Source: an uncultured Gammaproteobacteria bacterium
GTDB taxonomy: Bacteria; Patescibacteriota; Microgenomatia; Daviesbacterales; UBA10151
NCBI GenBank assembly: GCA_964362195.1
Contig: CAYICZ010000004.1
Location: 1 to 47,933, forward strand
Direction of reading: 5' to 3'
DNA length: 47,933 nt
This document shows, in pieces, positions 7,258 through 41,337 of the stretch. The notes under the pieces are model-generated. The model did not search any database. It had not been told where the DNA came from and saw nothing but the letters and a program-made list of their open reading frames with translations. The first letter of the stretch is position 1. Every line of letters begins with the position of its first letter. The translations under genes were made by a program, and so were the position numbers.

Positions 7258-8171
7258 TTATTTGTTGATTTTAGGGGAAAATCCGGGTAGCCGTTCAGGA
7301 AATCTTTTAAAGATATAGCTTTTTTGCCTTCCATTTGCAACATATTTCCTGGTAGGAATTTAACTATGCGGGCTTGCCCGCTGGAGCCCGAAGGGCGAAA
7401 GCGGGTCCAAACCCCCGGCCAGGGGTAATATGCCCGAATCATTCTGTTTAATTTTTGTGGATCAGGTTGGTTATCAATGGGGAAGTAGCCACTTTCTCTG
7501 GTTAATTTATCACAAAATGTAGCGATCGCATCATTTTGTTTTTTCAAAGTTATCTTTCCTGCAGCAAAATCCTCAATAATTTTGGGTAAAACCTCAGCCG
7601 CTTGCTGAAACATTTTTTTACTCAAAGTATCAAAATTATCTTCATTAAAGAGCTCTAAAGTATCTTGATAAATAATGGGTCCATGATCCACTTCCTCATC
7701 CATTTTTATGATAGTTATTCCGGTTTCGCTGTCTCCATTTAATATAGCTTGCTGAATAGGTGAAGGACCTCTGTATTTGGGTAAGAGTGATGGGTGAACA
7801 TTCAAGCTTCCGAATTTTGGAATGTTTAAGATAAATTTTGGAATAATTTTGCCGAAAGAAGCAACTACAAATAGATCAGGCTTGAAATTTGAGATTTGGG
7901 ATTGGAAATTTTCATCCAGCTTTCCGGAAGTAAATATTGGTCCTTTGAAATAATTAGCTACAGCAGAATCTGAAGCAGTAACCACTGCCACAACCTCAAA
8001 ATTATCTTCCAGCGCCTGCAAGATAGGAATAACAAAAAGATCACTTCCAAAAAAGATAACTTTAATTTCGTTTAGTTTGATCTTTCCTAAATATTTTTCA
8101 ACCTCTTTCATATAAACCGGGATGATTTCTAAAGTAGAAAGGGGGACTTGTGGATGCTGCAGCTTTATCAT
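7254..8171 (-). CDS. fmt: Methionyl-tRNA formyltransferase
   Basis: IFFGS, LNVHPSLLPKYRGPSPIQ, VDHGPI, IRAYYPWPG; adjacent to def. Confidence 0.95.
   Translation of the reverse strand: MIKLQHPQVPLSTLEIIPVYMKEVEKYLGKIKLNEIKVIFFGSDLFVIPILQALEDNFEVVAVVTASDSAVANYFKGPIFTSGKLDENFQSQISNFKPDLFVVASFGKIIPKFILNIPKFGSLNVHPSLLPKYRGPSPIQQAILNGDSETGITIIKMDEEVDHGPIIYQDTLELFNEDNFDTLSKKMFQQAAEVLPKIIEDFAAGKITLKKQNDAIATFCDKLTRESGYFPIDNQPDPQKLNRMIRAYYPWPGVWTRFRPSGSSGQARIVKFLPGNMLQMEGKKAISLKDFLNGYPDFPLKSTNK
7368..7405. repeat. Palindromic element in frame in fmt (RFRPSGSSGQAR)
   Basis: CCCGCT-GGA-GCCC-GAA-GGGC-GAA-AGCGGG stem/internal loop/stem; GC-rich island in an AT-rich gene. Confidence 0.8.
7882..7909. repeat. 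Period-7 tract in fmt (NFQSQISNF)
   Basis: TTGAAAT TTGAGAT TTGGGAT TGGAAAT. Confidence 0.75.
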
Positions 8172-8683
8172 ATGGTGATTTCCTCAAAATTATCCATGCC
8201 TGTTTTGTCTTTTCCGGTGAATTTATAAAATTTTCCTTTTTGCTCAAGTACCCTGTCTTGAAACAGGACACCATTTAAATGATCTATTTCATGCTGGAAA
8301 ATCCAGGCCAAAACCCCTTTTAAAGCTTTTGTAATCATCTTTCCGGTCTCATTCTGGTATGAAATTTTGATATTGGTGTATCTTTTAACCTCACCCCAAA
8401 CATTAGGGGCAGACAAACACCCTTCAAAATATTTTTTGGTTCTTTTGCCAGTTGAGAGTATTTTTGGATTAATCACAGAGACAAAATTTTTATCATGTTT
8501 AACCACAAAAAAGCTCTCATTCAGACCTACCTGAGTTGAGGCAAGTCCCACCCCCTCAGGATCATTAAAAGTTTTGGTAAGTTTTATCATTTCTTTTAAG
8601 GTTTTAAGCAAAGCAGAGTTAATCTTTTTAACCCGCTTTGTTTGTACTCTAAGCCTTGGATCAGGCGCTATAACTATTTGCAT
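8168..8683 (-). CDS. def: Peptide deformylase
   Basis: GVGLASTQVG, EGCLS, QHEIDHLNG; start set at MQIV, 7 nt after TGnTACAAT. Confidence 0.96.
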   Translation of the reverse strand: MQIVIAPDPRLRVQTKRVKKINSALLKTLKEMIKLTKTFNDPEGVGLASTQVGLNESFFVVKHDKNFVSVINPKILSTGKRTKKYFEGCLSAPNVWGEVKRYTNIKISYQNETGKMITKALKGVLAWIFQHEIDHLNGVLFQDRVLEQKGKFYKFTGKDKTGMDNFEEITI

Positions 8684-8719
8684 AAGTGGAATTGTAGCAT
8701 TTAGGATAAATTGAGGCAA

Positions 8720-9067
8720 TTAAAAGCGTCTTTCTCCTCTTAGAAATTTCTGGGCTTTTGAGGCTGCGTTTGATAAAGGAGAACCTTTTTCTTTGAAATA
8801 CCAGATATGGCCAGCCAATCTGGCACCCTCCTTGGTAAATACTGAATAACCTTTCTCCTTATGAAGCAACTCGTCTGGAATGAGTCCTGCATCTACCCAA
8901 TCTCGAAGGGCATATCTGCTTATACGAGGAAGACGTTTTCTGATCCAGGATGGCTTAATAAAAGTAGGGGTTTTAGGTGAATCTAGTTCTTCCTCATATG
9001 CATTCAACTTATCATCTATTTCATCGAGTAACCATTCTTTAACTACTGTTTCTGGGCTATCAACCAT
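8720..9067 (-). CDS. MerR-type HTH domain protein
   Basis: ISRYALRDWVDAGLIP...KGYSVFT resembles the MerR HTH and wing. Confidence 0.6.
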   Translation of the reverse strand: MVDSPETVVKEWLLDEIDDKLNAYEEELDSPKTPTFIKPSWIRKRLPRISRYALRDWVDAGLIPDELLHKEKGYSVFTKEGARLAGHIWYFKEKGSPLSNAASKAQKFLRGERRF

Positions 9068-9076
9068 GAGTATATT

Positions 9077-9340
9077 TTAACTTATTTTCTTAAGTTCTGA
9101 AAGCTTCCACATAAACACCTTAGCTTTGTTTTTGGCATTGTAGTAGCCTTTGGTATAATTTAGGGCCTCCTCTAAAATTTGTCTTGGCAACTCTTTGGCA
9201 AGCTTTATATATAAAGAATAGTGCTTGGTATCATCCAGCGATTCTGCCAGGAATACTCCATAAACCTGAAATTCTTTGCTCAAATTTTTCGGCCTGTCTT
9301 TAAATTTAGTCTCGCCGAGTATATTATTTAGTGACTTCAT
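9077..9340 (-). CDS. Hypothetical small helical protein
   Basis: 87-aa ORF overlapping the stop of the upstream ligase gene. Confidence 0.7.
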   Translation of the reverse strand: MKSLNNILGETKFKDRPKNLSKEFQVYGVFLAESLDDTKHYSLYIKLAKELPRQILEEALNYTKGYYNAKNKAKVFMWKLSELKKIS

Positions 9341-11306
9341 TGAGTTGCTGTTTGGCTTCCGGATAATCCGGCTTTAATTTTAGGGCTTGCTGCAGCACTT
9401 TTATTTCCTCATCTTTTTTAGTGCGCGAAGCGCGCGAGCTTTGCTCATTTTGGCTATCTAAAATTAAAGCTTTATTATAGTAAAGCTTGGGATCTGTTGG
9501 AGCTAAAGATATAGCCTGGTTTAGCGCATTTAAAGTTGTATCCAGATATTTGTTATCCAAAGAGGCCAATTCAAAATAGGTCCTGATAGCTGTTCTCCAA
9601 AAAGAGACATTTTTAGGGCTGTTCTTTAAAACCTGACCCATCTGGGCAACCGCTTCGTCTTTTAGCGCAGCAGATAAAGTTGCATCAGTTTGCTCTAAGG
9701 CTGCTGCAGCCTGGGCAGCGGAAAAAGCTAACTCAGATTGATAAAAAGGCTCGGAAGAATTCAGTTCCAAAGCAGAAGAAATGAAATTATATGCTTTGCC
9801 GGGATTTCCCAAATCAAAAGCTTTTTGGCCCTGGTTAAATAGTGTGTCAGCTGTCCAGATTTTAATAACAGAATATAAAAGATAAATGGTGAATAGTGCC
9901 ACAATAACTTTAGCAGCTTGGGCATAAATTGGCCTTTTGTAAATAAAACTAAACCCTAAACCCGATACCCTGAACCCTGTTGTGGCTTCTGTTGCCACAA
10001 AAACAAGTGCCGGGAAAAGATAGAAAAATACGGCAATAATCACAACTGAGAATAAAAAGAAGTTATAGATAAGAAAGGAAATATATGAAGAAAGCAAAGC
10101 GACTATAAAAATATTAGGCTTTGACCCCAGGATTTTTTTGAAGCTCCAATAAATAAATGAGCCTATTAAGAGTATATATGTGCCAAATCCCAAAATTCCT
10201 GTGTTGGCTAAATAATTTAAATATTCATTATGAGCCTTGTTATATAAAAAGTCCCACTCAGAAGTTTTATTATGCTCAGAGGGCCTATATTGATAATATG
10301 AATAAGCAAAAGTTTCCAAACCTGTTCCTAAAATAGGGTTATGTTTAAAGATTTCCAAAGCCCCTTTCCAGACAATAAAGCGGATTTGTCCGGATTCAGT
10401 TCCCCCATTTTCCAGCTGAGTTGTAGAAGTTTGAGGTAGTGCTATAGCAGGTCTGGTAGGTGAGGCAAACCTGGAAACAAGCCTGAGAGAGGTTAAGGCA
10501 GATCCAAATAATAAATTAACTGCCAAAAAAGAACCAAGCACTATTAAAATAATTTTGTTTTGTTTGAGTTTGGAAAATGCAAATCCTAAAAATACTGCCA
10601 TTCCTCCTATTAACCCTAATGTTGGACCTCTGGAGTAAGTGAAGGTAAAAGCCAGATAATAAATAATAAGTACCAAGTACCAAATTCCAAGTTCCAAATT
10701 CTTTTTAGCTGCTAAAAAGAAATATAAAGCAGGGAAGATAAGCATAGCAAGATATGCAGCCAGCCAATTGGGCTGGCCTAAGGTAGCAAATACCCTGGCC
10801 TGTACATCCTGTACCCAGCAGGAGGCATTAAACTCACTCCGTAAAATAATACAGGATAAGGAAACGCCAAAATGTTCAAAAATACCCCACAAAGAAATAA
10901 TAAATCCGGCAGCTAAACCAAATTTTAAAGTTGTTAAAACTTGTGTCTTGTTAATATTTGAAACAAAGGCCCAGTAAAGTAATAGATAAGAGATAATAGA
11001 TAATAATCCTCCATTGGATCTGGAATAATATCCCCAAATGGAGGTATGGATATCTATGGAAAAAATAGTAGATAAAACATTTGCTCCTAAAAATAGTAAA
11101 AGAGGAATATCTAGCGGAGTACGTTTAATCGTTAATCGTTTATCGTTTATCGTTTTTAAAACCCAAGTTCCAATAATAAGAATAGTGATTCCGTAAGTAA
11201 GCAACATCTTGTTATATTCAAAAAGCTCGTAATTTAGCGAAGTCCAAAAAAGTGGAGTGAGGAAAAAGAGAAGATAGAAAGAGTAACTGATAATTTTATC
11301 TAACAT
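9324..11306 (-). CDS. O-antigen ligase (Wzy_C/O-OTase-like) family membrane protein with C-terminal TPR repeats
   Basis: Many TM helices; RVFATLGQPN, TYSRG, R..VWKGA, AHNEYL; TPR-like AISLAPTDP and ALKLKPDY. Confidence 0.88.
   Translation of the reverse strand: MLDKIISYSFYLLFFLTPLFWTSLNYELFEYNKMLLTYGITILIIGTWVLKTINDKRLTIKRTPLDIPLLLFLGANVLSTIFSIDIHTSIWGYYSRSNGGLLSIISYLLLYWAFVSNINKTQVLTTLKFGLAAGFIISLWGIFEHFGVSLSCIILRSEFNASCWVQDVQARVFATLGQPNWLAAYLAMLIFPALYFFLAAKKNLELGIWYLVLIIYYLAFTFTYSRGPTLGLIGGMAVFLGFAFSKLKQNKIILIVLGSFLAVNLLFGSALTSLRLVSRFASPTRPAIALPQTSTTQLENGGTESGQIRFIVWKGALEIFKHNPILGTGLETFAYSYYQYRPSEHNKTSEWDFLYNKAHNEYLNYLANTGILGFGTYILLIGSFIYWSFKKILGSKPNIFIVALLSSYISFLIYNFFLFSVVIIAVFFYLFPALVFVATEATTGFRVSGLGFSFIYKRPIYAQAAKVIVALFTIYLLYSVIKIWTADTLFNQGQKAFDLGNPGKAYNFISSALELNSSEPFYQSELAFSAAQAAAALEQTDATLSAALKDEAVAQMGQVLKNSPKNVSFWRTAIRTYFELASLDNKYLDTTLNALNQAISLAPTDPKLYYNKALILDSQNEQSSRASRTKKDEEIKVLQQALKLKPDYPEAKQQLNEVTK
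9421..9440. repeat. GCGC-GAA-GCGC mini-hairpin in frame (SSRASRT)
   Basis: GTGCGCGAAGCGCGCGAGCT interrupts a TPR helix pair. Confidence 0.6.
9946..9980. repeat. Period-7 tract in ligase gene (TGFRVSGLGFS)
   Basis: AAACTAA ACCCTAA ACCCGAT ACCCTGA ACCCTGT. Confidence 0.8.
10664..10701. repeat. Period-7 tract in ligase gene (NLELGIWYLVL)
   Basis: TAATAAG TACCAAG TACCAAA TTCCAAG TTCCAAA TTC. Confidence 0.8.
11122..11157. repeat. Period-7 tract in ligase gene (KTINDKRLTIK)
   Basis: CGTTAAT CGTTTAT CGTTTAT CGTTTTT; 11126-11154 is the exact reverse complement of 14488-14516. Confidence 0.9.
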
Positions 11307-11309
11307 AAA

Positions 11310-11389
11310 TAGGGTACAGCGACTAGGGTATAGGGTTTAGTAAGAAAAATCAACTATACCCTAACCTCTAGACCCTAAACCCTACCCTA
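11310..11389. repeat. Inverted pair of TAGGGTW / WACCCTA heptamer tracts in a divergent intergenic region
   Basis: TAGGGTA cagcgac TAGGGTA TAGGGTT TAG ... TACCCTA ACCTCTA GACCCTA AACCCTA CCCTA. Confidence 0.85.
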
Positions 11390-11404
11390 TGTTAAACTCC
11401 CATC

Positions 11405-12469
11405 ATGTTTGGTAAGATCTGGTCATATTTTTCACATGATATAGGAATAGATTTAGGTACTGTTAATACTCTTGTTTTAGTTAAAGGTAAAGGGATAGTA
11501 ATCAGGGAACCAACCGTGGTGGCACTTCATAAAAAAACTAGGCAGGTTTTGGCAATCGGGACAGAGGCCAAAAGAATGCTGGGCAGGACCCCTGCTGCAA
11601 TTGAGGCAGTGAGGCCTCTTCGAAACGGGGTAATTTCTGATTTTGATACAACAGAGGCCATGCTTAGATATTTTATTCATAAGGTTCACGAAAGTCCGGC
11701 AGGTTCCAAATGGTATTCTCTTCCAAAAATTCCAAAGCCAAGGATTGTTGTTGGTATTCCATCAGGAGTGACAGAGGTGGAAAGAAGGGCTGTTCAGGAT
11801 GCCTGTTTATCTGCCGGAGCCAGGGAGGCATATTTAATTGAAGAGCCAATGGCTGCGGCAATCGGGGCCAAACTGCCGGTTGAAGATCCGGAAGGAGTCA
11901 TGATTGTAGATATTGGTGGAGGTACATGCGAAATTGCTATTATTTCCTTAGGAGGAATGGTAATAAACAGATCAATCAGGGTGGCCGGGGACGGGATGGA
12001 TGAAGCGATTGTAAACTATATGCGGACCAGGTATGGCATGCTGATTGGTGAGCGGACAGCCGAAGAGGTCAAAATGGAAATAGGTTCGGCATATCCTGTG
12101 GGCAAAGATGATTTGGCAACTGTGGTGCGGGGCAGGGACCTATCAACAGGTCTGCCTAAATCCTTAAAATTAAGCGCATCAGAAATCAGGGAGGCATTAA
12201 CACCAATAATTTCCGAGATAATAGGGGCAATTCAGGAAGTTTTAGAAGAAACTCCGCCGGAACTTTTAACAGATATAGTTGAGCGGGGGATATTTTTGAC
12301 AGGAGGAGGGGCTTTAATTTCTGGTTTGGATAAAAAAATTGCCGAGGAAACAAAACTGCCGGTTTATATTGCAGATGATCCGCTGACCACAGTTGTCAGA
12401 GGCTGTGGGGAAGTCTTAAATAATCTGGATTTACTATCTAAAGTAAGGGTAACCGGCGGATTAAGATAA
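11405..12469 (+). CDS. mreB: Rod shape-determining protein MreB
   Basis: IGIDLGT, EPMAAAIGA, VDIGGGT, LTGGGAL. Confidence 0.97.
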   Translation: MFGKIWSYFSHDIGIDLGTVNTLVLVKGKGIVIREPTVVALHKKTRQVLAIGTEAKRMLGRTPAAIEAVRPLRNGVISDFDTTEAMLRYFIHKVHESPAGSKWYSLPKIPKPRIVVGIPSGVTEVERRAVQDACLSAGAREAYLIEEPMAAAIGAKLPVEDPEGVMIVDIGGGTCEIAIISLGGMVINRSIRVAGDGMDEAIVNYMRTRYGMLIGERTAEEVKMEIGSAYPVGKDDLATVVRGRDLSTGLPKSLKLSASEIREALTPIISEIIGAIQEVLEETPPELLTDIVERGIFLTGGGALISGLDKKIAEETKLPVYIADDPLTTVVRGCGEVLNNLDLLSKVRVTGGLR

Positions 12470-13104
12470 TGAAAAAAGCTGTCCTGTTTGATATTGATGG
12501 AGTTTTGATTGATTCTTGGGATTTTGTCTTTGTGGCAGTTAAACATGCGCTAAAAAAGCCAGGTCACACTATTTCTGAGGAAGTAATAGTAAGCGCTATG
12601 GGAGGAAGGGCCCTTCTGGATTTTTATAAATTTTTGCTTCCAAAAGAAGATTATAAACTGATTGCCAAAAGCCACCAAAAATACCAGCAGGATAAATTTG
12701 ATTTGGGGAAACCATTTCCAAATGCCAAAAAGATTTTAAAAAAGTTAAAGTCCCAGGGATTTTTAATGGCTGCCATAAGTAATAGGACTAAAATAAGTTT
12801 AAAAACAACTTTGGATAGGGCAGAATTTTCCCCGTTCTTTGATATTGTTTTATCTGCAGAGGATGTTTTAAACCCCAAGCCTCACCCTGAGCATGTTTTG
12901 GCTGCATTAACTTATTTAAAAGTAAAACCCGCAAACTCATTTATGATCGGGGATACAAAAGATGATATTTTGGCAGGAAAATCTGCCAAGGTTAAAACAA
13001 TCGGAGTAACCTATGGCTTTGCCGGAAAAACAATTACTGACCATAATCCGGATTTTGTAATTGATGATTTGGAAGAATTAATAAAAGTGTTAAGATACAC
13101 CTAA
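12469..13104 (+). CDS. HAD-IA hydrolase (PpaX/Gph-like)
   Basis: FDIDGVL, ISN, KPHP, GDTKDD motifs. Confidence 0.9.
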   Translation: MKKAVLFDIDGVLIDSWDFVFVAVKHALKKPGHTISEEVIVSAMGGRALLDFYKFLLPKEDYKLIAKSHQKYQQDKFDLGKPFPNAKKILKKLKSQGFLMAAISNRTKISLKTTLDRAEFSPFFDIVLSAEDVLNPKPHPEHVLAALTYLKVKPANSFMIGDTKDDILAGKSAKVKTIGVTYGFAGKTITDHNPDFVIDDLEELIKVLRYT

Positions 13105-13525: not shown

Positions 13526-13567
13526 ACTTATATTTTAGCTTAATTTAAGGTAGAATTACAGGTGAAA

Positions 13568-14650
13568 ATGCTTAAAACACCCTTTTACGATCCGAATAAG
13601 AGTTATGAGGAAAATTATGATCAGGGGCCGTTTGGGGCATTTGCAGACGGAGTTGATTTAAGGACAGACGAAGAACCAAAATATGAATTTTTAGGTTTTA
13701 AGATTAATACCCCTTTTGGAATTCCCTCCGGTCCTTTAGTTAATTCTAAATTCTGTAAAGCCGCTTTTGAAAAAGGATTTAATGTAATTCATTATAAAAC
13801 CAGAAGATCTGGTGAGTTTCCCTGCAACCAATTTCCTAATGTTTTATTTGTAGAAACTGACGGGGATTTAACTTTAGAAAAAGCAAAAAAATCTCTTAAA
13901 GGGAGTAATATTGCTCCTGATGATTTATCAAAGATAAGTATTACCAACTCTTTCGGTAATCCATCACCTGATGCAAAAGTTTGGCAGGAGGATATGAAAA
14001 AGGCAGTGAAAGCAGCAGGATACGGTCAGCTGTTGATTGCTTCAGTTGTGGGAACAATTAAAGAGGGTTTTTCTGCCGAGGATTATTACGGCGATTTTGC
14101 GCTTGCTGCAAAATATGCAAAAGAGGCTGGAGTAAAAGTTATTGAAGTTAATTTATCCTGTCCGAATGTGGCATCAGAAGGTGTTTTATGCTACTCTGCT
14201 GATGCAGTAGAGGCTATCTGTAAAAAAGTAAGAGAAGTAATTGGTGATAAAGTTAAACTCCTGGCAAAAGTGGGTTATTTCTCCTCTGATCAACAAATTC
14301 TCCTGGAAGATATTATCAAAAGAATAAATTCATATATTGATGGAATTTCAGCAATTAATACAATTCCGGCTCCGGTGGTTGATGAAAATGGGAAGCAAGC
14401 TTTACCTGGAGAAGGAAGACTTTCAGCAGGGATTTGTGGAGCAGGGATTAAATGGGCAGGGCTGGATATGGTTAGGAGATTGCGATTAACGATAAACGAT
14501 AAACGATTAACGATTATAGGAGTAGGTGGAGTGACAAAGCCTGAGGATTATTTTGAGTATATTAATGCCGGGGCTGATGTAGTCCAATCTGCAACAGGAG
14601 CTATGTGGAACCCTGAACTTGCTCAAGAAATCAAACAACTGGCGAAATAA
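13568..14650 (+). CDS. pyrD: Dihydroorotate dehydrogenase-like FMN enzyme
   Basis: YKT, EVNLSCPN, LAK, AINT, IIGVGGV, GADVVQ; convergent with pyrCEF; alternative GTG start at 13562. Confidence 0.85.
   Translation: MLKTPFYDPNKSYEENYDQGPFGAFADGVDLRTDEEPKYEFLGFKINTPFGIPSGPLVNSKFCKAAFEKGFNVIHYKTRRSGEFPCNQFPNVLFVETDGDLTLEKAKKSLKGSNIAPDDLSKISITNSFGNPSPDAKVWQEDMKKAVKAAGYGQLLIASVVGTIKEGFSAEDYYGDFALAAKYAKEAGVKVIEVNLSCPNVASEGVLCYSADAVEAICKKVREVIGDKVKLLAKVGYFSSDQQILLEDIIKRINSYIDGISAINTIPAPVVDENGKQALPGEGRLSAGICGAGIKWAGLDMVRRLRLTINDKRLTIIGVGGVTKPEDYFEYINAGADVVQSATGAMWNPELAQEIKQLAK
14483..14517. repeat. Period-7 tract in pyrD (RLTINDKRLTI)
   Basis: CGATTAA CGATAAA CGATAAA CGATTAA CGATTAT. Confidence 0.9.
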
Positions 14651-15686
14651 TTCTTCCTGAACCTTTTTCTGCTAAAATTTGACCGTTTTCAAAAACTTTT
14701 TCTCCTCTTAAATAAACTGTTTTTACTTTACCCACTACTTTTTTGCCCTCAAAAGGGGACCACTTGCACTTTGTGTAGAAGGGAATAGGGTTTAGGGTAT
14801 AGGGTTTAGTATCATCAACTTCTATATAAGTATTTTCATCAGTTGGAATGTTAAAAATCCTTTTAGGGTTGTCAAATAAAAGCCTTTTAATATCATCTAT
14901 AGTAAGTTTGTCTTCGCTAACTGCTGTTAATAAAAGTGGAAGAGTTGTCTCAAGTCCGGGTACTCCAAATGGAGGATTTTCACTCTCCTTTTCTGCTTTA
15001 GTATGTGGCGCATGGTCAGATTCAATAAGGTCTATGGAATCTAGGTTACTCCATAGAAAATCCTGGTCAGCTTGGGTTTTTAAAAATGGCTTCATTCTGC
15101 CATATGGCCCAAGTTTTTGGCCATCTATGTCTGTTAGAAAAAGATGGTGGGGAGTAACTCCACAAGTTAAAGGTAGCCCCTCTTTTTTTGCAGTCATAAT
15201 TTGGGACAATTCTTCTTTGGATGAAACATGACAAATATGGGTTTTCTTGTTGGTGGACTTAATAATTTTTAAAGCCATAGGCAAAGTTTTCCCTTCACAA
15301 TGTAAAAGAATTGGCTGACTTTCTGGCCAAGCTTCATAAATGGCCCTCAATTTTTCTTCATCAATTAAAAAATTTCCGGTTGTAACATTTAAATAAAGTT
15401 TTATTCCAAAGACTTGACTTGCCACTTTAGGAAATTCTTCTAAATTATCACCCAAAGATCCAAAGTAAAAACCTATATCGCAAACAGTATTTTTTCTGGC
15501 CAGTTCCATTTTTTGTTGGAGTAGCTCTTGGGTGATTATGGGCACTTTATTGTTGGGCATATCCAAAACAGTAGCAAATCCTCCGGCTAGCGCAGCAGAG
15601 GTGCCGGTTAAAAAATCCTCCTTTTCCTCCTGTCCCGGAGTCCGAAGGTGTACATGGATATCAATTAGACCGGGTAAAGTAATCAT
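14631..15686 (-). CDS. pyrC: Dihydroorotase
   Basis: PGLIDIHVHLR, DMPN, HICHVS, VTPHHL, SDHAPH. Confidence 0.93.
   Translation of the reverse strand: MITLPGLIDIHVHLRTPGQEEKEDFLTGTSAALAGGFATVLDMPNNKVPIITQELLQQKMELARKNTVCDIGFYFGSLGDNLEEFPKVASQVFGIKLYLNVTTGNFLIDEEKLRAIYEAWPESQPILLHCEGKTLPMALKIIKSTNKKTHICHVSSKEELSQIMTAKKEGLPLTCGVTPHHLFLTDIDGQKLGPYGRMKPFLKTQADQDFLWSNLDSIDLIESDHAPHTKAEKESENPPFGVPGLETTLPLLLTAVSEDKLTIDDIKRLLFDNPKRIFNIPTDENTYIEVDDTKPYTLNPIPFYTKCKWSPFEGKKVVGKVKTVYLRGEKVFENGQILAEKGSGRIISPVV
14779..14811. repeat. Period-7 tract in pyrC (TKPYTLNPIP)
   Basis: AAGGGAA TAGGGTT TAGGGTA TAGGGTT TAGTA; 14793-14811 is identical to 11324-11342. Confidence 0.85.
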
Positions 15687-30426: not shown

Positions 30427-31376
30427 AAAAGCACGAAGAATACCAATATCTGGATCTATTAAAAGACATCATGAAAAATGGGGTAAACAAGCCTGTTTTT
30501 AATAATCCGGGGGTCCACATCAAATCTGTTTTTGGCAGGCAACTAAGGTTTGATTTATCAAAAGGTTTTCCTTTGCTTACAACCAAAAAAGTATTTTTGC
30601 GCGGAATTATTCATGAACTGCTTTGGTTTATAAAAGGGGATTCAAATATTAAATATCTGGTTGATTGTGACGTGCATATTTGGGATGAATGGGCGTATAA
30701 AGCTTACAAAGTGCAAAGTGCAAAGGGAAAAGTGAAAAGTTTAACACAGGAAGAATTTATACAAAAAATAAAACAGCTACCAACCAGTGATCCTTTTGTT
30801 AAAAATTGGGGGGATTTGGGAAATGTTTATGGAGTGCAGTGGAGAAAATGGAAAACATCTGATGGAAGGATAATTGATCAGCTGGCTTGGGCCATTAATG
30901 AGTTAAAAACCACCCCTTTTAGAAAATCAATTGTTGTTTCTGCCTGGAATCCGGAATTTATTTATGAGATGGCCTCACCTGGGAAATCCATGGCCCTGCC
31001 TCCCTGCCATACTCTTTTTCAATTTAATGTAAAGGCTGGCAGGTTATCACTGCAACTTTATCAGCGCTCTGCAGATACATTTTTAGGTGTTCCTTTCAAC
31101 ATAGCATCTTATGCTTTATTTACGCAGATGGTCGCTCAAGTGGTGGGATTTAAACCCGGAGAATTTGTCCATACATTTGGTGACGTACATATATATAGTA
31201 ATCATATGAGTCAGGTTAAAGAGCAATTAAAGAGGGTTCCAAGAAAATTTCCAAAAATGAAAATTAATCCTAAGATAAAAAATATTGATGATTTTAAACT
31301 GGAAGACTTTACCCTTGAGAACTACAATCCATATCCTCCTATTAAGGGAGAGGTGACAGTAGTAGGAGGATTTTGA
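30423..31376 (+). CDS. thyA: Thymidylate synthase
   Basis: [31 protein letters not shown]. Confidence 0.97.
30707..30741. repeat. Period-7 tract in thyA ([11 protein letters not shown])
   Basis: CAAAGTG CAAAGTG CAAAGGG AAAAGTG AAAAGTT. Confidence 0.85.
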
Positions 31377-33218: not shown

Positions 33219-33223
33219 TCTAA

Positions 33224-34860: not shown

Positions 34861-34876
34861 TTGTTATACTGAATTT

Positions 34877-35878
34877 GTGATTAGACTGCTCAGTATACTA
34901 ACTATAATTTTAGCAATTATCCTTTTTCCTCCTGCTACCCTGGCAGTCCTGTCCAATAATGCTGTGCCAGGAGATGCAGCATATCCTATTAAAAGAACCT
35001 TGGAAGATGTTATTTATGCAGCTGCTTCTATTAATCCAACATCTAAAGCCTGGTTTTCTGCAGCCAGATCTGATCGAAGATATAAGGAGATTAAAATATT
35101 AGTTACTTCAGGGAAACAAGCCAAAACAACTCTTCAAGAACTAGTTTCTCAGGCTGATATAACGGTAGAACAGATGACACAGGTTCAAGATAAAACACAA
35201 AGAAAACAGCTACTTAATGATTATGTGCAAACTTTAGATAAATATGAAGAAAACTTAAAACAATTAAGTTCTGATGTAACTCCTACTCAAACTCCTACTC
35301 CTATACCTACAGTTACAGCTGTACCTTCAGTTAAACCACAGCCTACTGGCGTACAACCAACTCTAACTTCAGTTCCAACCCCTATTCCAACACCTTCTCC
35401 AGAGCCGATAAATTCTAATCCGCCTGTTTCTCTTACCTCTCCTACTGATCTTAATAATGCAGCAGATCAACTGAAGAAAATTCAAGATAAAGCAAAGAAT
35501 GCAACTCTGTCAAGTATTGGACCTTTATCTATAATAGGAGATACAGCTCCTCAAAATTTGCCGACACCTACTCCAAAGGTAAGTCCTTTCCCAACATGTA
35601 AAACGGATTGCGGGTATTGTACTACCAGGCAACTTTGTGATCAGGGAAAAGTTTATGATACTTGTGTAGATAATTTAGACAGGAAAAATGATGATAAGGC
35701 TTTCTGCACTGGGCCAGAGGCAAAAACTTTCAGATGTTATGCCTCGGATAATGAGTTTTGCAGAAGTGTAGATCCCAACAATCCTTCAAATGAGTTTATC
35801 TATTCTTGCTTAGCTTGTAACAGCCCAACTTTAACTCCTGGGTTCAAGCCAATTCCACTGAATGATAATTTAGAGTAG
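34877..35878 (+). CDS. Surface protein: DUF5667-like domain, Pro/Thr linker, Cys-rich C-terminus
   Basis: N-terminal TM; AVPGDAAYPIKR; PT repeats; 10 Cys in the last ~95 aa. Confidence 0.7.
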   Translation: MIRLLSILTIILAIILFPPATLAVLSNNAVPGDAAYPIKRTLEDVIYAAASINPTSKAWFSAARSDRRYKEIKILVTSGKQAKTTLQELVSQADITVEQMTQVQDKTQRKQLLNDYVQTLDKYEENLKQLSSDVTPTQTPTPIPTVTAVPSVKPQPTGVQPTLTSVPTPIPTPSPEPINSNPPVSLTSPTDLNNAADQLKKIQDKAKNATLSSIGPLSIIGDTAPQNLPTPTPKVSPFPTCKTDCGYCTTRQLCDQGKVYDTCVDNLDRKNDDKAFCTGPEAKTFRCYASDNEFCRSVDPNNPSNEFIYSCLACNSPTLTPGFKPIPLNDNLE

Positions 35879-35888
35879 AATATTGATA

Positions 35889-37112
35889 ATGAAATATTCG
35901 AAACTTTTTCCTAAAACTTTAAAACAAGCACCCAGCGGTGCGGAGTCTGTAAATCACCAACTTTTGGTCCGGGCAGGGTTTATTCACCAGGAAATGGCAG
36001 GGGTTTATACCTATTTGCCTTTAGGCTGGAAAGTATTGGATAAAATCTCAGATATAGTCAGGGAGGAAATGAATATCGTTGATGGGCAAGAACTAATTAT
36101 GCCTGTTTTGCACTCTGCCCAGAATTGGAAAAAAACCGGAAGATACGTCTCACTTGATGTGTTATACAGACTAAAAGGAACCGGCGATGCTGATTTAGTT
36201 TTAGGCCCAACTCATGAGGAAATTATTTATCCCTTGCTTGCAGAATACATAAATTCCTACAAAGATTTACCTCTTGCCTTGTATCAAATTCAGGTTAAAT
36301 TTAGGAATGAACCCAGGGCAAAAGCAGGATTACTTCGGGGGAGAGAGTTTTTAATGAAAGATTTATATTCTTTTCATACCTCGGACGAAGACCGCGATGA
36401 ATATTATGAAAAAGTCAGAAAGGCCTATCTTAAAATATTTACCAAGATTGGTTTACCGGTGGTTGAAACAAAAGCCGGTGGAGGTACTTTTTCTTCTATT
36501 TCACAGGAATTTCAGACTTTAACTCCATCAGGTGAAGATACAGTTTTTATTTGCGAAAAGTGTTCTCATGCTATAAACAAGGAATTAATTGAAGGAACAG
36601 ATTGTCCTGAATGTGGAGGCAAGTTAAAAGAGGAAAAGGCAATTGAGGTAGGAAATATATTTCCTTTAAAAAGAGCCTATGCTGAGGCATTTAATCTTAA
36701 CTTCACAGATCAAAATGGCCAGAAAACTATAGTTTCTGCAGGTTGTTATGGCTTGGGGATATCCAGAACCATGGGAGCGATTGTGGAAGTATTTCATGAT
36801 GAAAAAGGCATTATCTGGCCGGAATCTGTAGCGCCATATCAGGTGCATTTAATCGGACTGGGACTAGAAGATGAAAAAGTTAAATCAGAAGCTGAAAAAG
36901 TTTATAAGTTGCTGCAAGCAGATGGAGTTGAAGTTTTATATGATGATCGGGTGGAAGTTTCAGCCGGAGCAAAATTTGCAGATTGTGATTTAATCGGAAT
37001 TCCATACAGAATAGTTATTTCCAAAAAAACAGGAGAAAAGCTGGAAGTTAAAAAAAGATCAGAAAAACAAACTCAATTTGTCTACTTAGATGAATTGATA
37101 AAAATGCTATAA
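35889..37112 (+). CDS. proS: Proline--tRNA ligase (short, no editing domain)
   Basis: LLVRAGF, GPTHEE, KFRNEPR, REFLMKD, GCYGLG; start at MKYS, 7 nt after TAGAAT. Confidence 0.96.
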   Translation: MKYSKLFPKTLKQAPSGAESVNHQLLVRAGFIHQEMAGVYTYLPLGWKVLDKISDIVREEMNIVDGQELIMPVLHSAQNWKKTGRYVSLDVLYRLKGTGDADLVLGPTHEEIIYPLLAEYINSYKDLPLALYQIQVKFRNEPRAKAGLLRGREFLMKDLYSFHTSDEDRDEYYEKVRKAYLKIFTKIGLPVVETKAGGGTFSSISQEFQTLTPSGEDTVFICEKCSHAINKELIEGTDCPECGGKLKEEKAIEVGNIFPLKRAYAEAFNLNFTDQNGQKTIVSAGCYGLGISRTMGAIVEVFHDEKGIIWPESVAPYQVHLIGLGLEDEKVKSEAEKVYKLLQADGVEVLYDDRVEVSAGAKFADCDLIGIPYRIVISKKTGEKLEVKKRSEKQTQFVYLDELIKML

Positions 37113-37119
37113 TATAATT

Positions 37120-37344
37120 ATGATTTTTGAGGCAAGAAATAGTATGCCAGGGTATCCTTTTTACAGATCTGAACCAGAATTTTTAAAATGGTTTTTTAAT
37201 CGTTTTGATACCACCCCTGAGGAAAAAGATATTGATAGATGGAAAATAGTTGTAGAGCAGCAGTTAAGAAGTGCTCTAGAGTTACCTTTATTAAAAGCAG
37301 GTATGCCCCTGCCTTCAAAGATGCATCTTTTTAACAGGAATTGA
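37120..37344 (+). CDS. Small orphan protein
   Basis: 74-aa ORF with TGnTATAAT-6-ATG. Confidence 0.55.
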   Translation: MIFEARNSMPGYPFYRSEPEFLKWFFNRFDTTPEEKDIDRWKIVVEQQLRSALELPLLKAGMPLPSKMHLFNRN

Positions 37345-37378
37345 TTTTAAGGCTCATTTCTAATACAATACTTGCCAG

Positions 37379-38446
37379 ATGATAGCCAAAAATATAGTCA
37401 AACAGCCGAAAAGTATAGTTGAAGTAACAGTTACTGTCCCCTGGGAGGATTTATCTGGCACTTGGGATCAGACTTTAGCTAAAATGGTAACTGATGTAGA
37501 AATTGCCGGTTTTAGAAAAGGGGCGGCCCCTTTGCCAATGGTGGAATCTCAGCTTGGCCAAAGACTTCAGGATGAGGTATTAAAAACTGCTATGCCTAAT
37601 TTATTAATCCAGGCTCTTTCCGGATCTGATATTGTCCCAATTGATTACCCAAAATATGATTTAGTTTCTTTTGTGAAAGGCACTCAGTTGCAGTTTAAAG
37701 CAACTATTACCAACAGGCCAACTGTAACTGTGGGGAATTATAAAACAATTAAAGCTACAAAGCCTGTTATCAAACCGGTAACAGATGAGGAAGAGCAAAA
37801 AGTTATTGATGATTTATTCAAAAGATGGAAAGCGAAAAATTCTGTTGTACAACAACCAGCCTCTCAAACTGGGCCCGGCGGTTCAATAAATTTTAATGTC
37901 GGATCACAAACTAATGGACAAGCTGACACCCCAAACGAAGAATTCGCCAAAGCCATGGGGGCGATATCCTTAATTGATTTAAAAACTAAAGTCAGAAAAG
38001 ATTTGGAGGCCAATGTTACTTACAACAATGAACTGGACTACGAGGAAGCAATTTTGCAGGAAGTTGAAAAAATCACCACAGTTGAACTTCCGGATATTTT
38101 AATCCAGGACGAGTTAAATAGGATGCTGGTTTCCCTCCAAAGGAGGGTTGCAGATATGGGACTTCTTTTGGAGGATTATTTAAAAGGACAGGGTAAAACT
38201 TTGGAGCAGATTAAACAGGAATGGAAAGCTCAAGCTGAGAAAAATGTCAGGATGGAACTGGGATTGGCAGAGATTGCAAGGTCTGAGAATGTTAACATAA
38301 CTGATGCTGAGTTGCAAGCCGAAATAGATAAAATACAAGACCAAAAAGTAAAAGCGCAATTCGGCACTCAGGAACCGCGTCTTCATCTAAGACATGCACT
38401 AAGGCAAACCAGAACCTTAGATCTTTTAAAGAAAATGGTTGGTTAA
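37379..38446 (+). CDS. tig: Trigger factor lacking the PPIase domain
   Basis: IAGFRKGAAP ribosome-binding loop; C-terminal domain; low-complexity linker in place of FKBP. Confidence 0.88.
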   Translation: MIAKNIVKQPKSIVEVTVTVPWEDLSGTWDQTLAKMVTDVEIAGFRKGAAPLPMVESQLGQRLQDEVLKTAMPNLLIQALSGSDIVPIDYPKYDLVSFVKGTQLQFKATITNRPTVTVGNYKTIKATKPVIKPVTDEEEQKVIDDLFKRWKAKNSVVQQPASQTGPGGSINFNVGSQTNGQADTPNEEFAKAMGAISLIDLKTKVRKDLEANVTYNNELDYEEAILQEVEKITTVELPDILIQDELNRMLVSLQRRVADMGLLLEDYLKGQGKTLEQIKQEWKAQAEKNVRMELGLAEIARSENVNITDAELQAEIDKIQDQKVKAQFGTQEPRLHLRHALRQTRTLDLLKKMVG

Positions 38447-38779
38447 ATGAATGATTGTATCTTTTGTAAGATAATTAATAAAGAGATTCCCAAGGAATTT
38501 AGAGCTGAGTCAGAGAACTTAGTTGCTTTTGATGATATTAATCCTTCAGCAGATATACATATAGTAATAGTCCCCAAAAAGCATATAGGAGCAATGAGTG
38601 ATATTACACTTGAGCATGGAAATTTACTGGCTGAAATTTATCAAACAGCCAGTAAGTTAGCTGTAGACAATAATCTGACAGATAATTTATACAGAGTAGT
38701 GGTGAATGGCGGAAAAGCCCAACACATACCCCATTTACATTTTCACTTTTTAGGGGGACAATGGAAGAAATTCATCTGA
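38447..38779 (+). CDS. HIT family nucleotide hydrolase (Hint-like)
   Basis: CIFCKI, AFDDINP, HLHFH. Confidence 0.93.
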   Translation: MNDCIFCKIINKEIPKEFRAESENLVAFDDINPSADIHIVIVPKKHIGAMSDITLEHGNLLAEIYQTASKLAVDNNLTDNLYRVVVNGGKAQHIPHLHFHFLGGQWKKFI

Positions 38780-38794
38780 AGGAGGTGTTTTTAT

Positions 38795-38992
38795 TTGTCA
38801 ATTGTTGTTAAAGCCGGACCTGGTGATTCAACAGATTCAGTTATTAGAAAATTTCAAAAAAAAGTAGTTATGGAAGGTTTAGTGCAAGAGATCAGAGATA
38901 GATCAGTTTATAAAAAGCCTTCTCAAAAGCGCCAGGAGTATCTGGCTGAAAAAAGAAGAAAAATTATGAGGGCCCGTAGATATGGTGGATAA
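38795..38992 (+). CDS. rpsU: 30S ribosomal protein S21
   Basis: IRKFQKKV, YKKPSQKR; TTG start after strong SD AAGGAGGTG; precedes yqeY. Confidence 0.88.
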   Translation: MSIVVKAGPGDSTDSVIRKFQKKVVMEGLVQEIRDRSVYKKPSQKRQEYLAEKRRKIMRARRYGG

Positions 38993-39419
38993 GATTCAAT
39001 CAGATTTAAAACAAGCACAACTGTCAAGAGATGAGATTAAGGTTTCAACCTTAAGGCTTTTGCTTTCTGAAATTAAGAATGCAGAGATTGCCAAGGGTGG
39101 AGATCTTGGTGGTCCGGATATAGTTGCTATAGTTCAAAAAGAAGTAAAAAAAAGAAAAGAAGCTGCAATAGGTTTTCGTTCTGGAGGAAGAGAAGAAGCA
39201 GCTCAAAAAGAAGAAGCTGAAGCTAAAATTTTAGAAGGATATTTACCTACTCAGCTTTCAAATGAGGAATTGACTAAAATTATAGAAACAACTATAACTG
39301 AAGTAGGGGCAACTTCCATTAAGGATATGGGCAAGGTAATTGGCATAGTTATGGGTAAAGTCCGTAGCCAAGCAGACGGTGGATCAGTAAGCAGTATAGT
39401 TAAAGAAAAACTTTCATGA
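38982..39419 (+). CDS. yqeY: GatB/YqeY domain protein
   Basis: KEVKKRKE, YLPTQLS, KDMGKV, ADG. Confidence 0.93.
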   Translation: MVDKIQSDLKQAQLSRDEIKVSTLRLLLSEIKNAEIAKGGDLGGPDIVAIVQKEVKKRKEAAIGFRSGGREEAAQKEEAEAKILEGYLPTQLSNEELTKIIETTITEVGATSIKDMGKVIGIVMGKVRSQADGGSVSSIVKEKLS

Positions 39420-39829
39420 TTAATATAATTGTAAATTCAGATCCAAGATACAATATAAACCGCGCAGCTCTAAAAGCTGCAGTTTTGGAAGCTCTTATGA
39501 AAAATAGAGTTTCCGGCAAAATTGAAGTGGGGATTAATATTGTCGGGGATAGAAAAATGCACGAGCTAAACAATAAGTTCCGCGGCATTGACTCAACTAC
39601 TGATATTTTATCTTTTGCGCTGGAGGATTCAAATCCTTCCAGTTTGCAGCATATCCCCAGAATTGGTTTTATTTCTTCACCGGATAAAATTTTAAGACTT
39701 GGAGATATTGTTATCTCTTACCCGGAAGCATTGGAAGATGCATCATATGATGGAACATCAGTTGATGATGAAATAAAAAGTCTTGTTCAGCATGGTATAA
39801 ATCATCTTTTAGGAATTCACCACCTTTAA
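39416..39829 (+). CDS. ybeY: rRNA maturation endoribonuclease YbeY
   Basis: LNNKFRG, TDILSF, LGDIVIS, HGINHLLGIHH. Confidence 0.92.
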   Translation: MINIIVNSDPRYNINRAALKAAVLEALMKNRVSGKIEVGINIVGDRKMHELNNKFRGIDSTTDILSFALEDSNPSSLQHIPRIGFISSPDKILRLGDIVISYPEALEDASYDGTSVDDEIKSLVQHGINHLLGIHHL

Positions 39830-41337
39830 TGAAAAATGAGAATATTGCTTACTATTTAAAATACCGTCCGCAAAATCTTGATGATCTGATTGGTCAGGAA
39901 CAGGTTAAGAAAACTCTTCTTTCAGCCTTTTTAACGGGGAAGCTGTCCCATGCATATCTTTTTGTGGGACCGAGGGGAACAGGTAAAACCTCCACGGCAA
40001 GAATACTTGCTAAAATGGTAAATTGTGAAGGAGAGAACCCTCCCTGTAATAAATGTGATATATGTATTTCTATTACTGATGGATCGAATTTGGATTTAAT
40101 CGAAATCGATGCGGCATCAAACAGGGGCATTGAGGATATAAGATCACTTAGGGAAAAGATAAAACTTTCACCAACCAAAGCTAAGAAAAAAGTTTACATA
40201 ATTGATGAGGTTCATATGTTAACCACCGAGGCCTTTAATGCATTACTTAAAACTTTGGAAGAGCCGCCCAAACATGTATTATTTATTTTAGCTACCACCG
40301 AAGTTTCCAAAGTACCTCAAACAATTTTGTCCCGTGTTCAAAGATTAGATTTTAAATTGGCAACTATGTCTCAATTAATGGAAACTTTACAAAAAATTAT
40401 CTTAATAGAAAAGATAGATATTGATGATGAGGCTTTAAAATTTTTAATCAAAAGATCAGATGGATCTTTTAGAGATGGGGTAAAACTACTAGATCAGATA
40501 GCTTCTATGGAAGGAAAAATTACATCTGAAGTTTTGGAAAAGTTTTTAAAATCTTCAAATTTTGAAAATCTTTTTAAACTGATAAAAGATTTTTCTCAAA
40601 AAGATACAACAGGAGCCCTAACTTTAATAGTTAAAGAACTAGAAGGCGGAGTTGATATAAAAGAATTTATATTTTCTTTAATGCACATTTTGCGAAATTT
40701 AGTTTTTATTAAAAATAATTTAGGGGACCAATTGGTCAAAGAAGATTATTCAGAGGAGGATTACCAAAATCTCATCAAAGTTTCTGAAAGTTTTACCAAT
40801 CAGGATCTAGTGAAAAGTTTAGATATTTTACAAAAGGCATTGGAGAAGATGAAAACAAGTTCAATTCCATCGTTGCCTTTAGAGTTGTCAGTAGTGGAAA
40901 TATGTGGATCAGAAAAAACTCATCCTCAATCTTCTATCATCGAAACTCTACCTTCCACTCTCGATCATCCATCGTCGAATGATCCTTCTGATATTTTGAA
41001 AATTAAAGAAAAGTGGACTTTTGTGCTGGAAACTATCAGACCATACAATTTTTCCTTGGAAGCCTTACTTCGCTCTATTAATGTAATTGAATGTAGCGAT
41101 ACGCAGGTTTTTATGGAGGTGCCATACTCTTTTCATCAAAGAATCCTGGAAGCTCCCAAGAACAAAGATATTTTAGAATCAATACTTTCTGAAATTCTAG
41201 GCAGGAACATTAAGGTTTCGACTGTTTTGGGTAATAGACCAACCAGGCAGGAAGATATTGCTAATATAGAACTGGCAGCAGATGATGATATTATCCGCGC
41301 CGCTGCAGAAATCTTCAGTTCTGACAGTGTAAATTAA
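39829..41337 (+). CDS. dnaX: DNA polymerase III subunit gamma/tau
   Basis: KYRPQ, GPRGTGKT, EIDAASN, IIDEVHML, LKTLEEPP. Confidence 0.96.
   Translation: MKNENIAYYLKYRPQNLDDLIGQEQVKKTLLSAFLTGKLSHAYLFVGPRGTGKTSTARILAKMVNCEGENPPCNKCDICISITDGSNLDLIEIDAASNRGIEDIRSLREKIKLSPTKAKKKVYIIDEVHMLTTEAFNALLKTLEEPPKHVLFILATTEVSKVPQTILSRVQRLDFKLATMSQLMETLQKIILIEKIDIDDEALKFLIKRSDGSFRDGVKLLDQIASMEGKITSEVLEKFLKSSNFENLFKLIKDFSQKDTTGALTLIVKELEGGVDIKEFIFSLMHILRNLVFIKNNLGDQLVKEDYSEEDYQNLIKVSESFTNQDLVKSLDILQKALEKMKTSSIPSLPLELSVVEICGSEKTHPQSSIIETLPSTLDHPSSNDPSDILKIKEKWTFVLETIRPYNFSLEALLRSINVIECSDTQVFMEVPYSFHQRILEAPKNKDILESILSEILGRNIKVSTVLGNRPTRQEDIANIELAADDDIIRAAAEIFSSDSVN
40922..40977. repeat. Degenerate period-7 tract in the dnaX linker
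   Basis: ATCCTCA ATCTTCT ATCATCG AAACTCT ACCTTCC ACTCTCG ATCATCC ATCGTCG. Confidence 0.7.

Follow-up and report, generated by a model that had tools for sequence, protein, structure and literature searches.

What process could place short tandem arrays of seven-nucleotide units, built from many different unit sequences, inside core genes and leave their reading frames open? The question is raised by contig CAYICZ010000004.1, a 47.9-kb stretch of DNA analysed over its whole length (hereafter the window), which forms contig C4 of a genome (G000) of 814,899 b in 38 contigs with about 37% G+C. Arrays of degenerate heptamers lie here within fmt, pyrD, pyrC, thyA, dnaX and the gene of a membrane protein. 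The excess of heptanucleotides in bacterial genomes has been known since 2007 without a demonstrated mechanism, and has been treated as a mainly intergenic curiosity. In this lineage, the period of the arrays is specifically seven nucleotides (nt), the trait follows a clade, the arrays are length-neutral at five of 12 compared sites, and the same sites have been rewritten recurrently. The molecular step, we infer, is misaligned DNA synthesis or conversion. Judged by its homologs, the nearest of which for PyrC and GatB carry the source label Candidatus Daviesbacteria, the organism belongs to the candidate phyla radiation, resembles Daviesbacteria and is not a cyanobacterium.

Specificity of the seven-nucleotide period

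Across the whole genome, a strict test that required at least 18 matches out of 21 at lag k and left out low-period runs found 34 tracts for k = 7 and 19 for k = 14, as against 0–4 at each other k from 4 to 15 and 0–1 in five Markov-2 shuffles. Exact lag-7 runs of at least 10 nt numbered 28, where 0.8 were expected. Within 904 crude open reading frame (ORF) calls, 32 tracts with k = 7 were found versus 0–1 in ten within-gene codon shuffles, by which codon-driven periodicity was rejected. A sequence-only reading of the window had claimed that the period is specific to seven, and had staked this claim on an excess over codon-shuffled controls, which is what was found.

In the window, Tandem Repeats Finder (TRF) gave 34 rows, ten of them with period 7 (starting at 5430, 7882, 9949, 10668, 10980, 11122, 11354, 14483, 14786 and 30707; Table 1). 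These rows miss the dnaX tract and the left arm of an intergenic inverted pair, and those at 5430 and 10980 are additional to the sequence-only reading. All ten places named in that reading were confirmed by TRF or by lag-7 identity, which ranges from 0.57 to 0.89 across its spans, and the host ORFs all remain open, as it had stated. Its gene names fmt, pyrD, pyrC, thyA and dnaX were correct, but the array-bearing "ligase" gene does not encode a DNA ligase; its product is a Wzy_C membrane protein, similar to O-antigen ligases and with TPR repeats at the C terminus.

Tandem head-to-tail 7-nt units above chance, which define heptanucleotide simple sequence repeats (SSRs) and long SSRs (LSSRs), are clearly present. 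The intergenic enrichment and coding depletion of LSSRs, as in Xanthomonas and Nostoc, were not found, since 32 of the 34 strict tracts lie in ORF calls that cover about 93% of the genome. A looser scan gave 61 tracts, of which 53 fall within stop-to-stop frames of at least 100 codons, and array positions are evenly spread along genes. None of 138 arrays from ten genomes exceeds 41 nt, and the eight intergenic arrays are no longer than the remaining ones. The 61 tracts comprise 46 canonical units, a diversity that argues against a fixed template, and a k-mer search for a flanking motif around the 138 arrays gave only AT-rich words (best AAATTT, z = 5.7, probably array edges).

Replacement and insertion at array sites

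Twelve array sites, of which seven lie in the window and four on other contigs, the dnaX linker being the last, were compared with orthologs of five related genera. No length change was found at five of them, namely Wzy_C sites 1 and 2 (five of five relatives each), PyrC, GatB and a 413-amino-acid (aa) protein on contig C10 (two of two relatives). GatB is the clearest length-neutral case: five CAATTGA units fill exactly the first 35 nt after the motif PEPDLP, the spacing from PEPDLP to PELP is 16 aa as in most other GatB loci aligned, and a common non-array form occupies the array segment in G017, G011 and another genome. At the PyrC site, the length is equal in all five relatives and in 38 of 39 orthologs from a large protein collection. 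In pyrD, a 12-aa segment without visible heptamer repeat in G011 and G006 (80% and 70% identical) corresponds to 10 aa here, a net change of -6 nt, and the same -2 aa is seen in four of four relatives.

Other arrays add length, with +3 aa in a 507-aa protein on contig C14 and +5 aa in a UvrD-like helicase. The window Fmt is 7 aa longer than that of G006, its nearest array-less relative, which corresponds to exactly three units, and 10 aa longer than those of G019 and G015, while the Fmt of G011 has another insert at the place of the array (protein level only). The thyA array is missing in G015, and the window ThyA is therefore 8 aa longer than its counterpart there. At Wzy_C site 3 and in the DnaX linker every genome differs in length, the relatives departing from the window protein at site 3 by -2, +7, +7, +7 and +19 aa.

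In four of these genes the tracts had been read as overwriting a native segment of similar length. These alignments indicate that the "overwriting" reading is largely supported, since it stands for PyrC, for Wzy_C before RTPLDIP and, at -2 aa, for PyrD, and fails for Fmt. Simple insertion or local duplication, which the same reading had set against overwriting, describes Fmt cleanly, and ThyA is likewise lengthened, but it does not hold at six or more sites. Steps of whole units between genera are seen as +7 aa at Fmt and Wzy_C site 3; most sites show 0 aa or values that are not multiples of 7 aa. The arrays do not fit the footprint of a mobile element, for which defined ends, a flanking motif or inverted repeats and added length would be expected, since no flanking motif is enriched and many sites are not lengthened at all. 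A transposon target-site-duplication footprint was also considered and rejected, because 7 nt added per event cannot yield zero net length.

Recurrent rewriting and selection at array sites

At nine of the 12 sites, one or more other genera have a period-7 array of their own at the DNA level, and its unit frequently differs. At Wzy_C site 3, all five relatives have near-perfect arrays of other units (CTATACC, CTTCTCA, CTTTACG, CATACTA); at site 2 their units are CATACTA (four copies), TTACTAC (four copies) and CTTATCA; and at site 1 AACGATW recurs in G011, with AATCNTW in G006, G015 and G017. The thyA site has CAAAGTG in G017, CAAAACT/CAAAAGT in G006 and CAAAACT/CAAATGT in G011. In the C14 protein AAGTATC is matched by AGGGGAA in another genus at equal length, and in GatB CAATTGA by GAATTAA. 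Among the 21 GatB loci that match best, 19 have the motif, and six of these 19 reach a lag-7 identity of at least 0.6 over the 42 nt that follow. In a more distant set of 60 loci the motif occurs in 51, one of which reaches this value. The GatB of G019 is a seventh case of an array after the motif.

The same history is recorded in PyrC. On a tree of 39 orthologs, built with the array segment masked, array and native states need ten changes, at least four of them forced by strongly supported branches, and seven of seven outgroup rows are of the native type. This count is conservative, because some probable AACGATW-type segments (YTINDKRL) were scored as native by the regular expression used. 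In the DNA of 12 further PyrC loci, lag-7 identity was 0.50–0.72 in four of Daviesbacteria type and 0.25–0.44 in eight others, mostly labelled Saccharibacteria. A PyrC structure model of moderate quality (mean predicted local distance difference test score 72.8), which allows no strong conclusion, locates the array in a connecting segment of mostly irregular structure that follows the strand at residues 287–291.

Signs of selection can be seen in the units themselves. Every unit of both AACGATW arrays (Wzy_C site 1 and pyrD) contains TAA, and the A/T position alternates in a way that keeps TAA out of frame, which explains part of the "degeneracy" of the arrays. Stop avoidance may also lie behind the 29 nt over which the Wzy_C site 1 array is 100% complementary to the pyrD array. 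Among 53 consensus units, a stop codon appears in some rotation of 19 in sense and of 29 in antisense orientation (background 0.40 and 0.39), a modest orientation bias. Other identities between arrays were also noticed: the intergenic and pyrC arrays have 19 nt in common, including 3–4 bases outside the repeat (family D1), and identical KPY[TI]LNPIP arrays occur in two PyrC lineages with 52% identity.

Two observations stand beside these. The window PyrC (14631–15686) is 50–54% identical to those of the five related genera and 70–83% identical to other Daviesbacteria-labelled proteins, and the G015 and G019 versions of PyrD (window 13562–14650) are only 33–34% identical, which suggests gene replacement or paralogy among the pyrimidine genes of the family. 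Three apparently secreted proteins of the genome (C6:9008–9913, C8:33621–34007 and C8:36611–38320) share a near-identical array peptide, [FS]LY[PA]IPYTLYP[TV], which is encoded by ACCCTAT units and directly follows an N-terminal hydrophobic segment.

Distribution of arrays within the class

The strict test was applied to 17 other genomes of the class in samples of 56–100 kb each, which are not whole genomes and in which kin are not independent. Tracts at lag 7 per 100 kb numbered 13.3 in G011, 7.6 in G017, 7.1 in G019, 7.0 in G015 and 6.7 in G006, with lower values in G022 (5.1), G007 (3.7), G014 (3.0), G012 (3.0) and G026 (2.0). No strict tract was found in the samples of five genomes of the same family as the window genome (G001, G010, G020, G005 and G024; 62–100 kb) or in those of G030 and G034, which belong to other families. 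Tract counts at other lags stay close to zero nearly throughout; only lag 12, with 4 in G001 and 3 in G007, and lag 8, with 3 in G012, stand out.

A RecJ tree covering 18 genomes groups the window genome with seven array-rich genera in a single clade (support 96/96); the array-positive G022, G012 and G026 lie outside it. The array trait needs at least three changes on this tree, two of them forced by strongly supported branches. The trait is heritable and clade-bound, and the clade offers a compact natural experiment, in which close genera differ in having it and the events are recorded in alignable core enzymes with anchor motifs.

Search for a responsible enzyme

Seven protein families were profiled in 41 genomes of the class and compared between 11 array-positive and seven array-negative genomes. 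None of the seven separates the two groups, HUH/Y1 transposases and primase-polymerases being outside the search. The reverse transcriptase (RT) family PF00078 occurs in 13 of the 41 genomes, MutS_V in 4, DinB/IMS in 31, RecJ in 40, the Pol I-type 5'-3' exonuclease in 39 and Ku in 1, and the large subunit of ExoVII in 8 (none of the 25 within the family). RT does not track the trait, since it is missing from five of the 11 array-positive genomes (including G011, G015 and G017) and found in three of the seven negative ones. According to these profiles, repair capacity across the class is strongly reduced, with MutS missing from 37 of 41 genomes; the gaps in MutS and ExoVII may be permissive, but they are not sufficient.

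The window genome has two RT ORFs (Table 1). The direct-repeat pairs close to them measure 130 nt at 78% and 85 nt at 86% identity and lie 381–468 nt apart, and in the pair whose sequence was inspected the differences fall almost solely at one base type. On these features both RTs are assigned to ordinary diversity-generating retroelements (DGRs) with template and variable repeats. The arrays themselves have neither the second copy nor the adenine pattern of a DGR, and among the proteins encoded in the window nothing suggestive of an array-writing enzyme was found. The sequence-only reading had seen in the tracts its best candidate for an undescribed system; a system with an enzyme of its own finds no backing in the family profiles, nor in any flanking recognition motif. 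As a separate observation, the only DinB-type (Y-family) polymerase gene of the genome (C12:5954–7210) itself carries a heptamer array (6817–6842).

Origin of the arrays

We consider it somewhat probable that the arrays result from misaligned DNA synthesis or out-of-register short-patch conversion in replication or repair, heritable within the clade and filtered by selection. A mutational process would copy DNA in a 7-nt register over short patches (up to about 41 nt, or five to six units), and could act anywhere in the genome and on almost any unit sequence. It might consist of slipped or transiently dislocated synthesis, or of short-patch conversion, in a lineage without MutS-type mismatch repair. 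Selection would retain only products that are in frame, stop-free and compatible in length; constrained sites would give length-neutral survivors ("overwrites"), and loops would give insertions. Because most of the genome is coding, most events would fall in genes. Arrays would decay by point mutation and then be rewritten, and the same tolerant sites would therefore bear different units across genera. Zero net length may be built into the process, as a mismatched patch that segregates without mismatch repair, or may mark the survivors of uncoupled delete-and-fill events. The reiterative or conversion-like synthesis proposed from the sequence alone is still the best reading, but it is probably an ordinary property of replication or repair in this clade and not a system of its own.

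A bolder version is possible but doubtful. It supposes a "lag-7 converter", which would be a heritable polymerase variant or an unrecognised, possibly transferable factor that rewrites up to about 40 nt in strict 7-nt register with length kept. If it were real, tolerant segments of essential genes would be continually overwritten, and one activity might underlie the unexplained heptamers of cyanobacteria, giant sulfur bacteria, Bacteroidota and others. If length-neutral lag-7 rewriting takes place in a single step, it would represent a new kind of templated mutation and a means by which segments of proteins are turned over in minimal genomes.

Several observations weigh against misaligned synthesis or conversion. 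The length-neutral arrays at five of 12 sites fit templated mutagenesis, but no single rewriting event was observed, and the length-neutral outcome could be the sum of indels filtered by selection, since the relatives are different genera. Five other sites shift in length (+3, +5, +7, +8 and -2 aa), and two more lie in variable-length regions. In a local-seed test, an exact copy of the unit, the possible donor heptamer, was present in the array-less ortholog in two of nine cases, the other seven being at chance level. Plain slippage needs pre-existing repeats and proceeds in 7-nt steps, and alone does not explain de novo arrays of zero net length. Some units recur too often for a process blind to sequence (the ACCCTAW family in about 10 of 61 tracts, AACGATW in 5 of 61), and the absence of MutS does not distinguish array-rich from array-free genomes. 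Exact arrays of four CCCTATA units, some of at least eight units, occur in at least 120 stretches (loci L037–L116), a count for which no control unit was scanned; the matches listed include Bacteroidota, Chloroflexota, Planctomycetota, Desulfobacterales, Patescibacteria and a Nostocales strain. The seed test does not demonstrate a derivation of the units from the first native heptamer, although GatB of G019 and PyrC do fit such a derivation.

On an ordinary microsatellite origin, arrays would arise and change by slipping three units (21 nt) at a time, in frame and in tolerant loops, with independent deletions later restoring the length and no length-neutral copying. The gains of exactly 7 aa, in Fmt against G006 and in three relatives at Wzy_C site 3, are what it predicts, the ThyA and DnaX arrays do lie in regions of variable length, and slippage is the published account of heptanucleotide SSRs (PMC4679880, PMC4692102). 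Such an origin is nevertheless unlikely, given that the length between fixed anchors is unchanged at five of 12 sites despite unrelated units across genera, that PyrC length stays constant in all but one of 39 orthologs through at least four state switches, and that net changes of -2, +3, +5 and +8 aa do not correspond to steps of 7 aa; arrays of four to five units also leave little room for repeated three-unit steps, and intergenic arrays do not exceed genic ones in length. An enzyme dedicated to writing the arrays (RT, primase-polymerase, HUH nuclease or unknown protein), perhaps acquired by horizontal transfer and kin to an activity perhaps behind the short tandemly repeated repetitive sequences (STRRs) of cyanobacteria and the TAACTGA repeats of Beggiatoa, we hold to be decidedly unlikely. 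The seven families profiled (RT, DinB, RecJ, the 5'-3' exonuclease, ExoVII, Ku and MutS) do not follow the trait, both RTs here belong to ordinary DGRs, units are diverse, and neither a flanking motif nor anything suggestive in the window was found. What speaks for such an enzyme is the all-or-none and patchy occurrence of the trait within the family, with the outliers G022, G012 and G026 and at least three changes, together with CCCTATA arrays in many unrelated phyla, a ceiling of about 41 nt that resembles a fixed patch length, and the suggestion of horizontal transfer prompted by the patchy distribution of TAACTGA (PMC4679880).

The identities between arrays bring ectopic copying into consideration, in which recombination over short patches would carry array sequence from locus to locus, or from strain to strain after DNA uptake, and spread one original event to many sites and lineages. 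To the Wzy_C/pyrD complementarity, the intergenic/pyrC match that runs past the repeat and the identical arrays of two diverged PyrC lineages can be added the CATACTA arrays of G019 at two sites of one gene, the peptide FLYPIPYTLYP common to three secreted proteins, and the presence of DprA and RecR genes in the window. However, most units are locus-specific, the A/T pattern of AACGATW is expected from stop-codon avoidance and the identity may thus be convergent, and copying between loci leaves the period of seven and the first origin of the arrays unexplained, which makes it very improbable. It is scarcely credible that the arrays were selected for a function of their own, as G-quadruplexes or hairpins, as targets of a heptamer-reading protein, or as heptad-like peptides. 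G-quadruplexes are conceivable for GGGTWTA units, four is the preferred number of units reported for GGGNATC (PMC4692102), the intergenic inverted pair has a strong predicted fold, and three signal-peptide ends carry one peptide; but most units are not G-rich and are highly diverse, selection on protein cannot produce a period of seven at the DNA level, arrays decay and unrelated units take over the same site, and related genomes manage without arrays.

Comparison with known repeat systems

The STRRs of cyanobacteria are built from few characteristic unit sequences. The present arrays differ from them in their host, with homologs in Daviesbacteria where STRRs belong to heterocystous cyanobacteria, and in their 46 units. 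With STRRs and TAACTGA repeats they have in common tandem heptamers, a patchy phylogeny and the lack of a known enzyme, so the likeness to STRRs drawn by the sequence-only reading was apt, yet they lie in frame within core genes; there, few units per genome occur mostly upstream of genes, whereas here dozens of units lie inside conserved domains (fmt, pyrC, pyrD, thyA, gatB, dnaX). TAACTGA repeats occur in Beggiatoaceae, cyanobacteria and Bacteroidetes; in Beggiatoaceae they lie mostly upstream of genes, with few ORF-internal copies at protein ends or in hypothetical proteins, which are read in all three frames as a 7-aa repeat (PMC4679880). According to Mrazek (2007), as described in PMC4679880 and PMC4692102, heptanucleotides outnumber every other class of long SSR in most genomes surveyed; the proposed cause was slippage by a polymerase with a footprint of roughly 7 nt. 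The GGGNATC repeats of Xanthomonas and Nostoc are reported to have 2–26 units and to be over-represented between genes and under-represented in coding sequence (PMC4692102). LSSRs resemble the present arrays in their head-to-tail 7-nt units far above chance, their many units and their lineage-specific, scattered distribution; the present arrays differ in being equally dense in genes, in lying inside core enzymes, in their limit of about 41 nt and in often replacing a segment without change of length.

Dislocation or transient-misalignment mutagenesis is a related templated process. Short template-switch mutations have been described by Loytynoja and Goldman (2017; PMC5453318) and in yeast coding genes (PMC8604942). 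In the cases described, clusters of base changes are templated nearby, length may stay and coding is altered, as is proposed here, but the templates are inverted repeats or quasi-palindromes and the events are single, whereas here the adjacent 7 nt of the strand itself would serve as template four to five times over, genome-wide and in one clade. Units within the genes of Borg elements are multiples of 3 nt. These elements are described as having rapidly evolving in-frame tandem repeats that create new disordered protein regions (PMC9879509). Such repeats are likewise of independent origin, evolve rapidly and add new peptide segments, but many arrays here replace existing segments, and their 7-nt unit is read in three frames.

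In contingency loci, long and pure arrays within surface or restriction-modification genes switch expression through frameshifts, with heptanucleotide cases in Haemophilus. Such loci share with the present arrays a unit that is not a multiple of three inside coding sequence; the arrays here are short, often degenerate, in housekeeping genes and all in open frame, and no pure repeat that switches the frame was found. A literature search combining the candidate phyla radiation, Daviesbacteria or Microgenomates with heptamer repeats gave no match to both, most subscription journals being outside its reach. The period and the lack of a known enzyme are thus already familiar; new are the location in the interior of core enzymes, the absence of coding depletion, the size ceiling, the diversity of units, and the length-neutral, recurrent rewriting.

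Arrays and genes of the window

The gene set of the window is typical of a small-genome bacterium, with fmt-def, mreBCD-pbp2, pyrD/C/E/F, thyA-folA, dnaX, topA and pyrG, and also includes several aminoacyl-tRNA synthetases, DprA and RecR. The coordinates of the arrays are collected in Table 1.

Table 1. Period-7 arrays of the window and the two RT reading frames on contig C5 of the same genome
Feature	Position	Strand	Unit	Support	Remark
Small repeat	5430..5448	+	TTAGATA, 2.9 copies	TRF	start of ORF 5421-6179
fmt array	7882..7911	-	AATYTCA (sense)	TRF, lag-7 identity 0.74	encodes ENFQSQISNFK directly before PDLFVVA
Wzy_C site 3 array	9946..9978	-	GGGTTYA/GGGTATC (sense)	TRF, lag-7 identity	
Wzy_C site 2 array	10664..10701	-	TTGGWAY (sense)	TRF, lag-7 identity	within hydrophobic segment
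Wzy_C period-7 stretch	10980..11005	-	TAATAGA	TRF	codes conserved LLSIISYLLLY, gap-free in relatives
Wzy_C site 1 array	11122..11158	-	AACGATW x5 (sense)	TRF, lag-7 identity	encodes INDKRLTIKR before TPLDIP
Intergenic inverted pair	11310..11390	.	TAGGGTW / WACCCTA		between divergent Wzy_C and mreB genes
pyrD array	14483..14517	+	AACGATW x5	lag-7 identity 0.89	encodes RLTINDKRLT before IIGVGG
pyrC array	14779..14811	-	ACCCTAW (sense)	TRF, lag-7 identity	encodes KPYTLNPIP before FYTKCKWSPF
thyA array	30707..30740	+	CAAAGTG	TRF	codes 11 aa of variable loop
dnaX linker degenerate array	40915..40977	+	NATCNTC, nine units	lag-7 identity	
Two RT ORFs (L370, L371), ~337 aa each	G000:C5:8498-9508, ~44137-44745				nearby direct-repeat pairs

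The dnaX tract has 30 of 56 lag-7 matches, which places it in the top 0.2% of genome windows, its values at other lags being 0.16–0.36, and the length of the DnaX linker is variable among relatives. The stretch at 10980..11005 in Wzy_C may be old or codon-driven.

In Logan contigs from two samples of one study, the arrays at 9949–78, 10668–701, 14483–516 and 14786–809 are reproduced with 0 differences, a match that is not independent support because its source is probably that of the window assembly itself; the sequencing runs containing the stretch are groundwater metagenomes of one study only. The Logan material consists of assembled contigs from three runs of that study at a depth of roughly 4–6. 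No indel was listed in these contigs, which say nothing on polymorphism, and the lack of any off-frame array variant among them is weak evidence. An assembly artefact was rejected as the source of the arrays, as in-frame arrays recur across many independently assembled genomes. Contigs of public assemblies start, stop or branch at arrays (9945–9981, 10668–10701, 11327–11377), their loose ends leading into other loci. Short-read metagenome assemblies are fragmented by heptamer arrays, and alignment-based analyses of host genes can be misled.

Array-like inserts that the window genome lacks were seen in relatives at the protein level only: the Wzy_C protein of G017 has two long ones in loops, and the zinc-finger region of DnaX in G019 holds NRKSLIVNRENKNDNRY. 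Finally, the two inverted heptamer arrays make up most of the 98 nt that separate the Wzy_C and mreB genes. A hairpin of -33.6 kcal/mol is predicted for them (z = -4.4, reached by none of 200 shuffles), and the pair may have a regulatory or structural role or be no more than two arrays.

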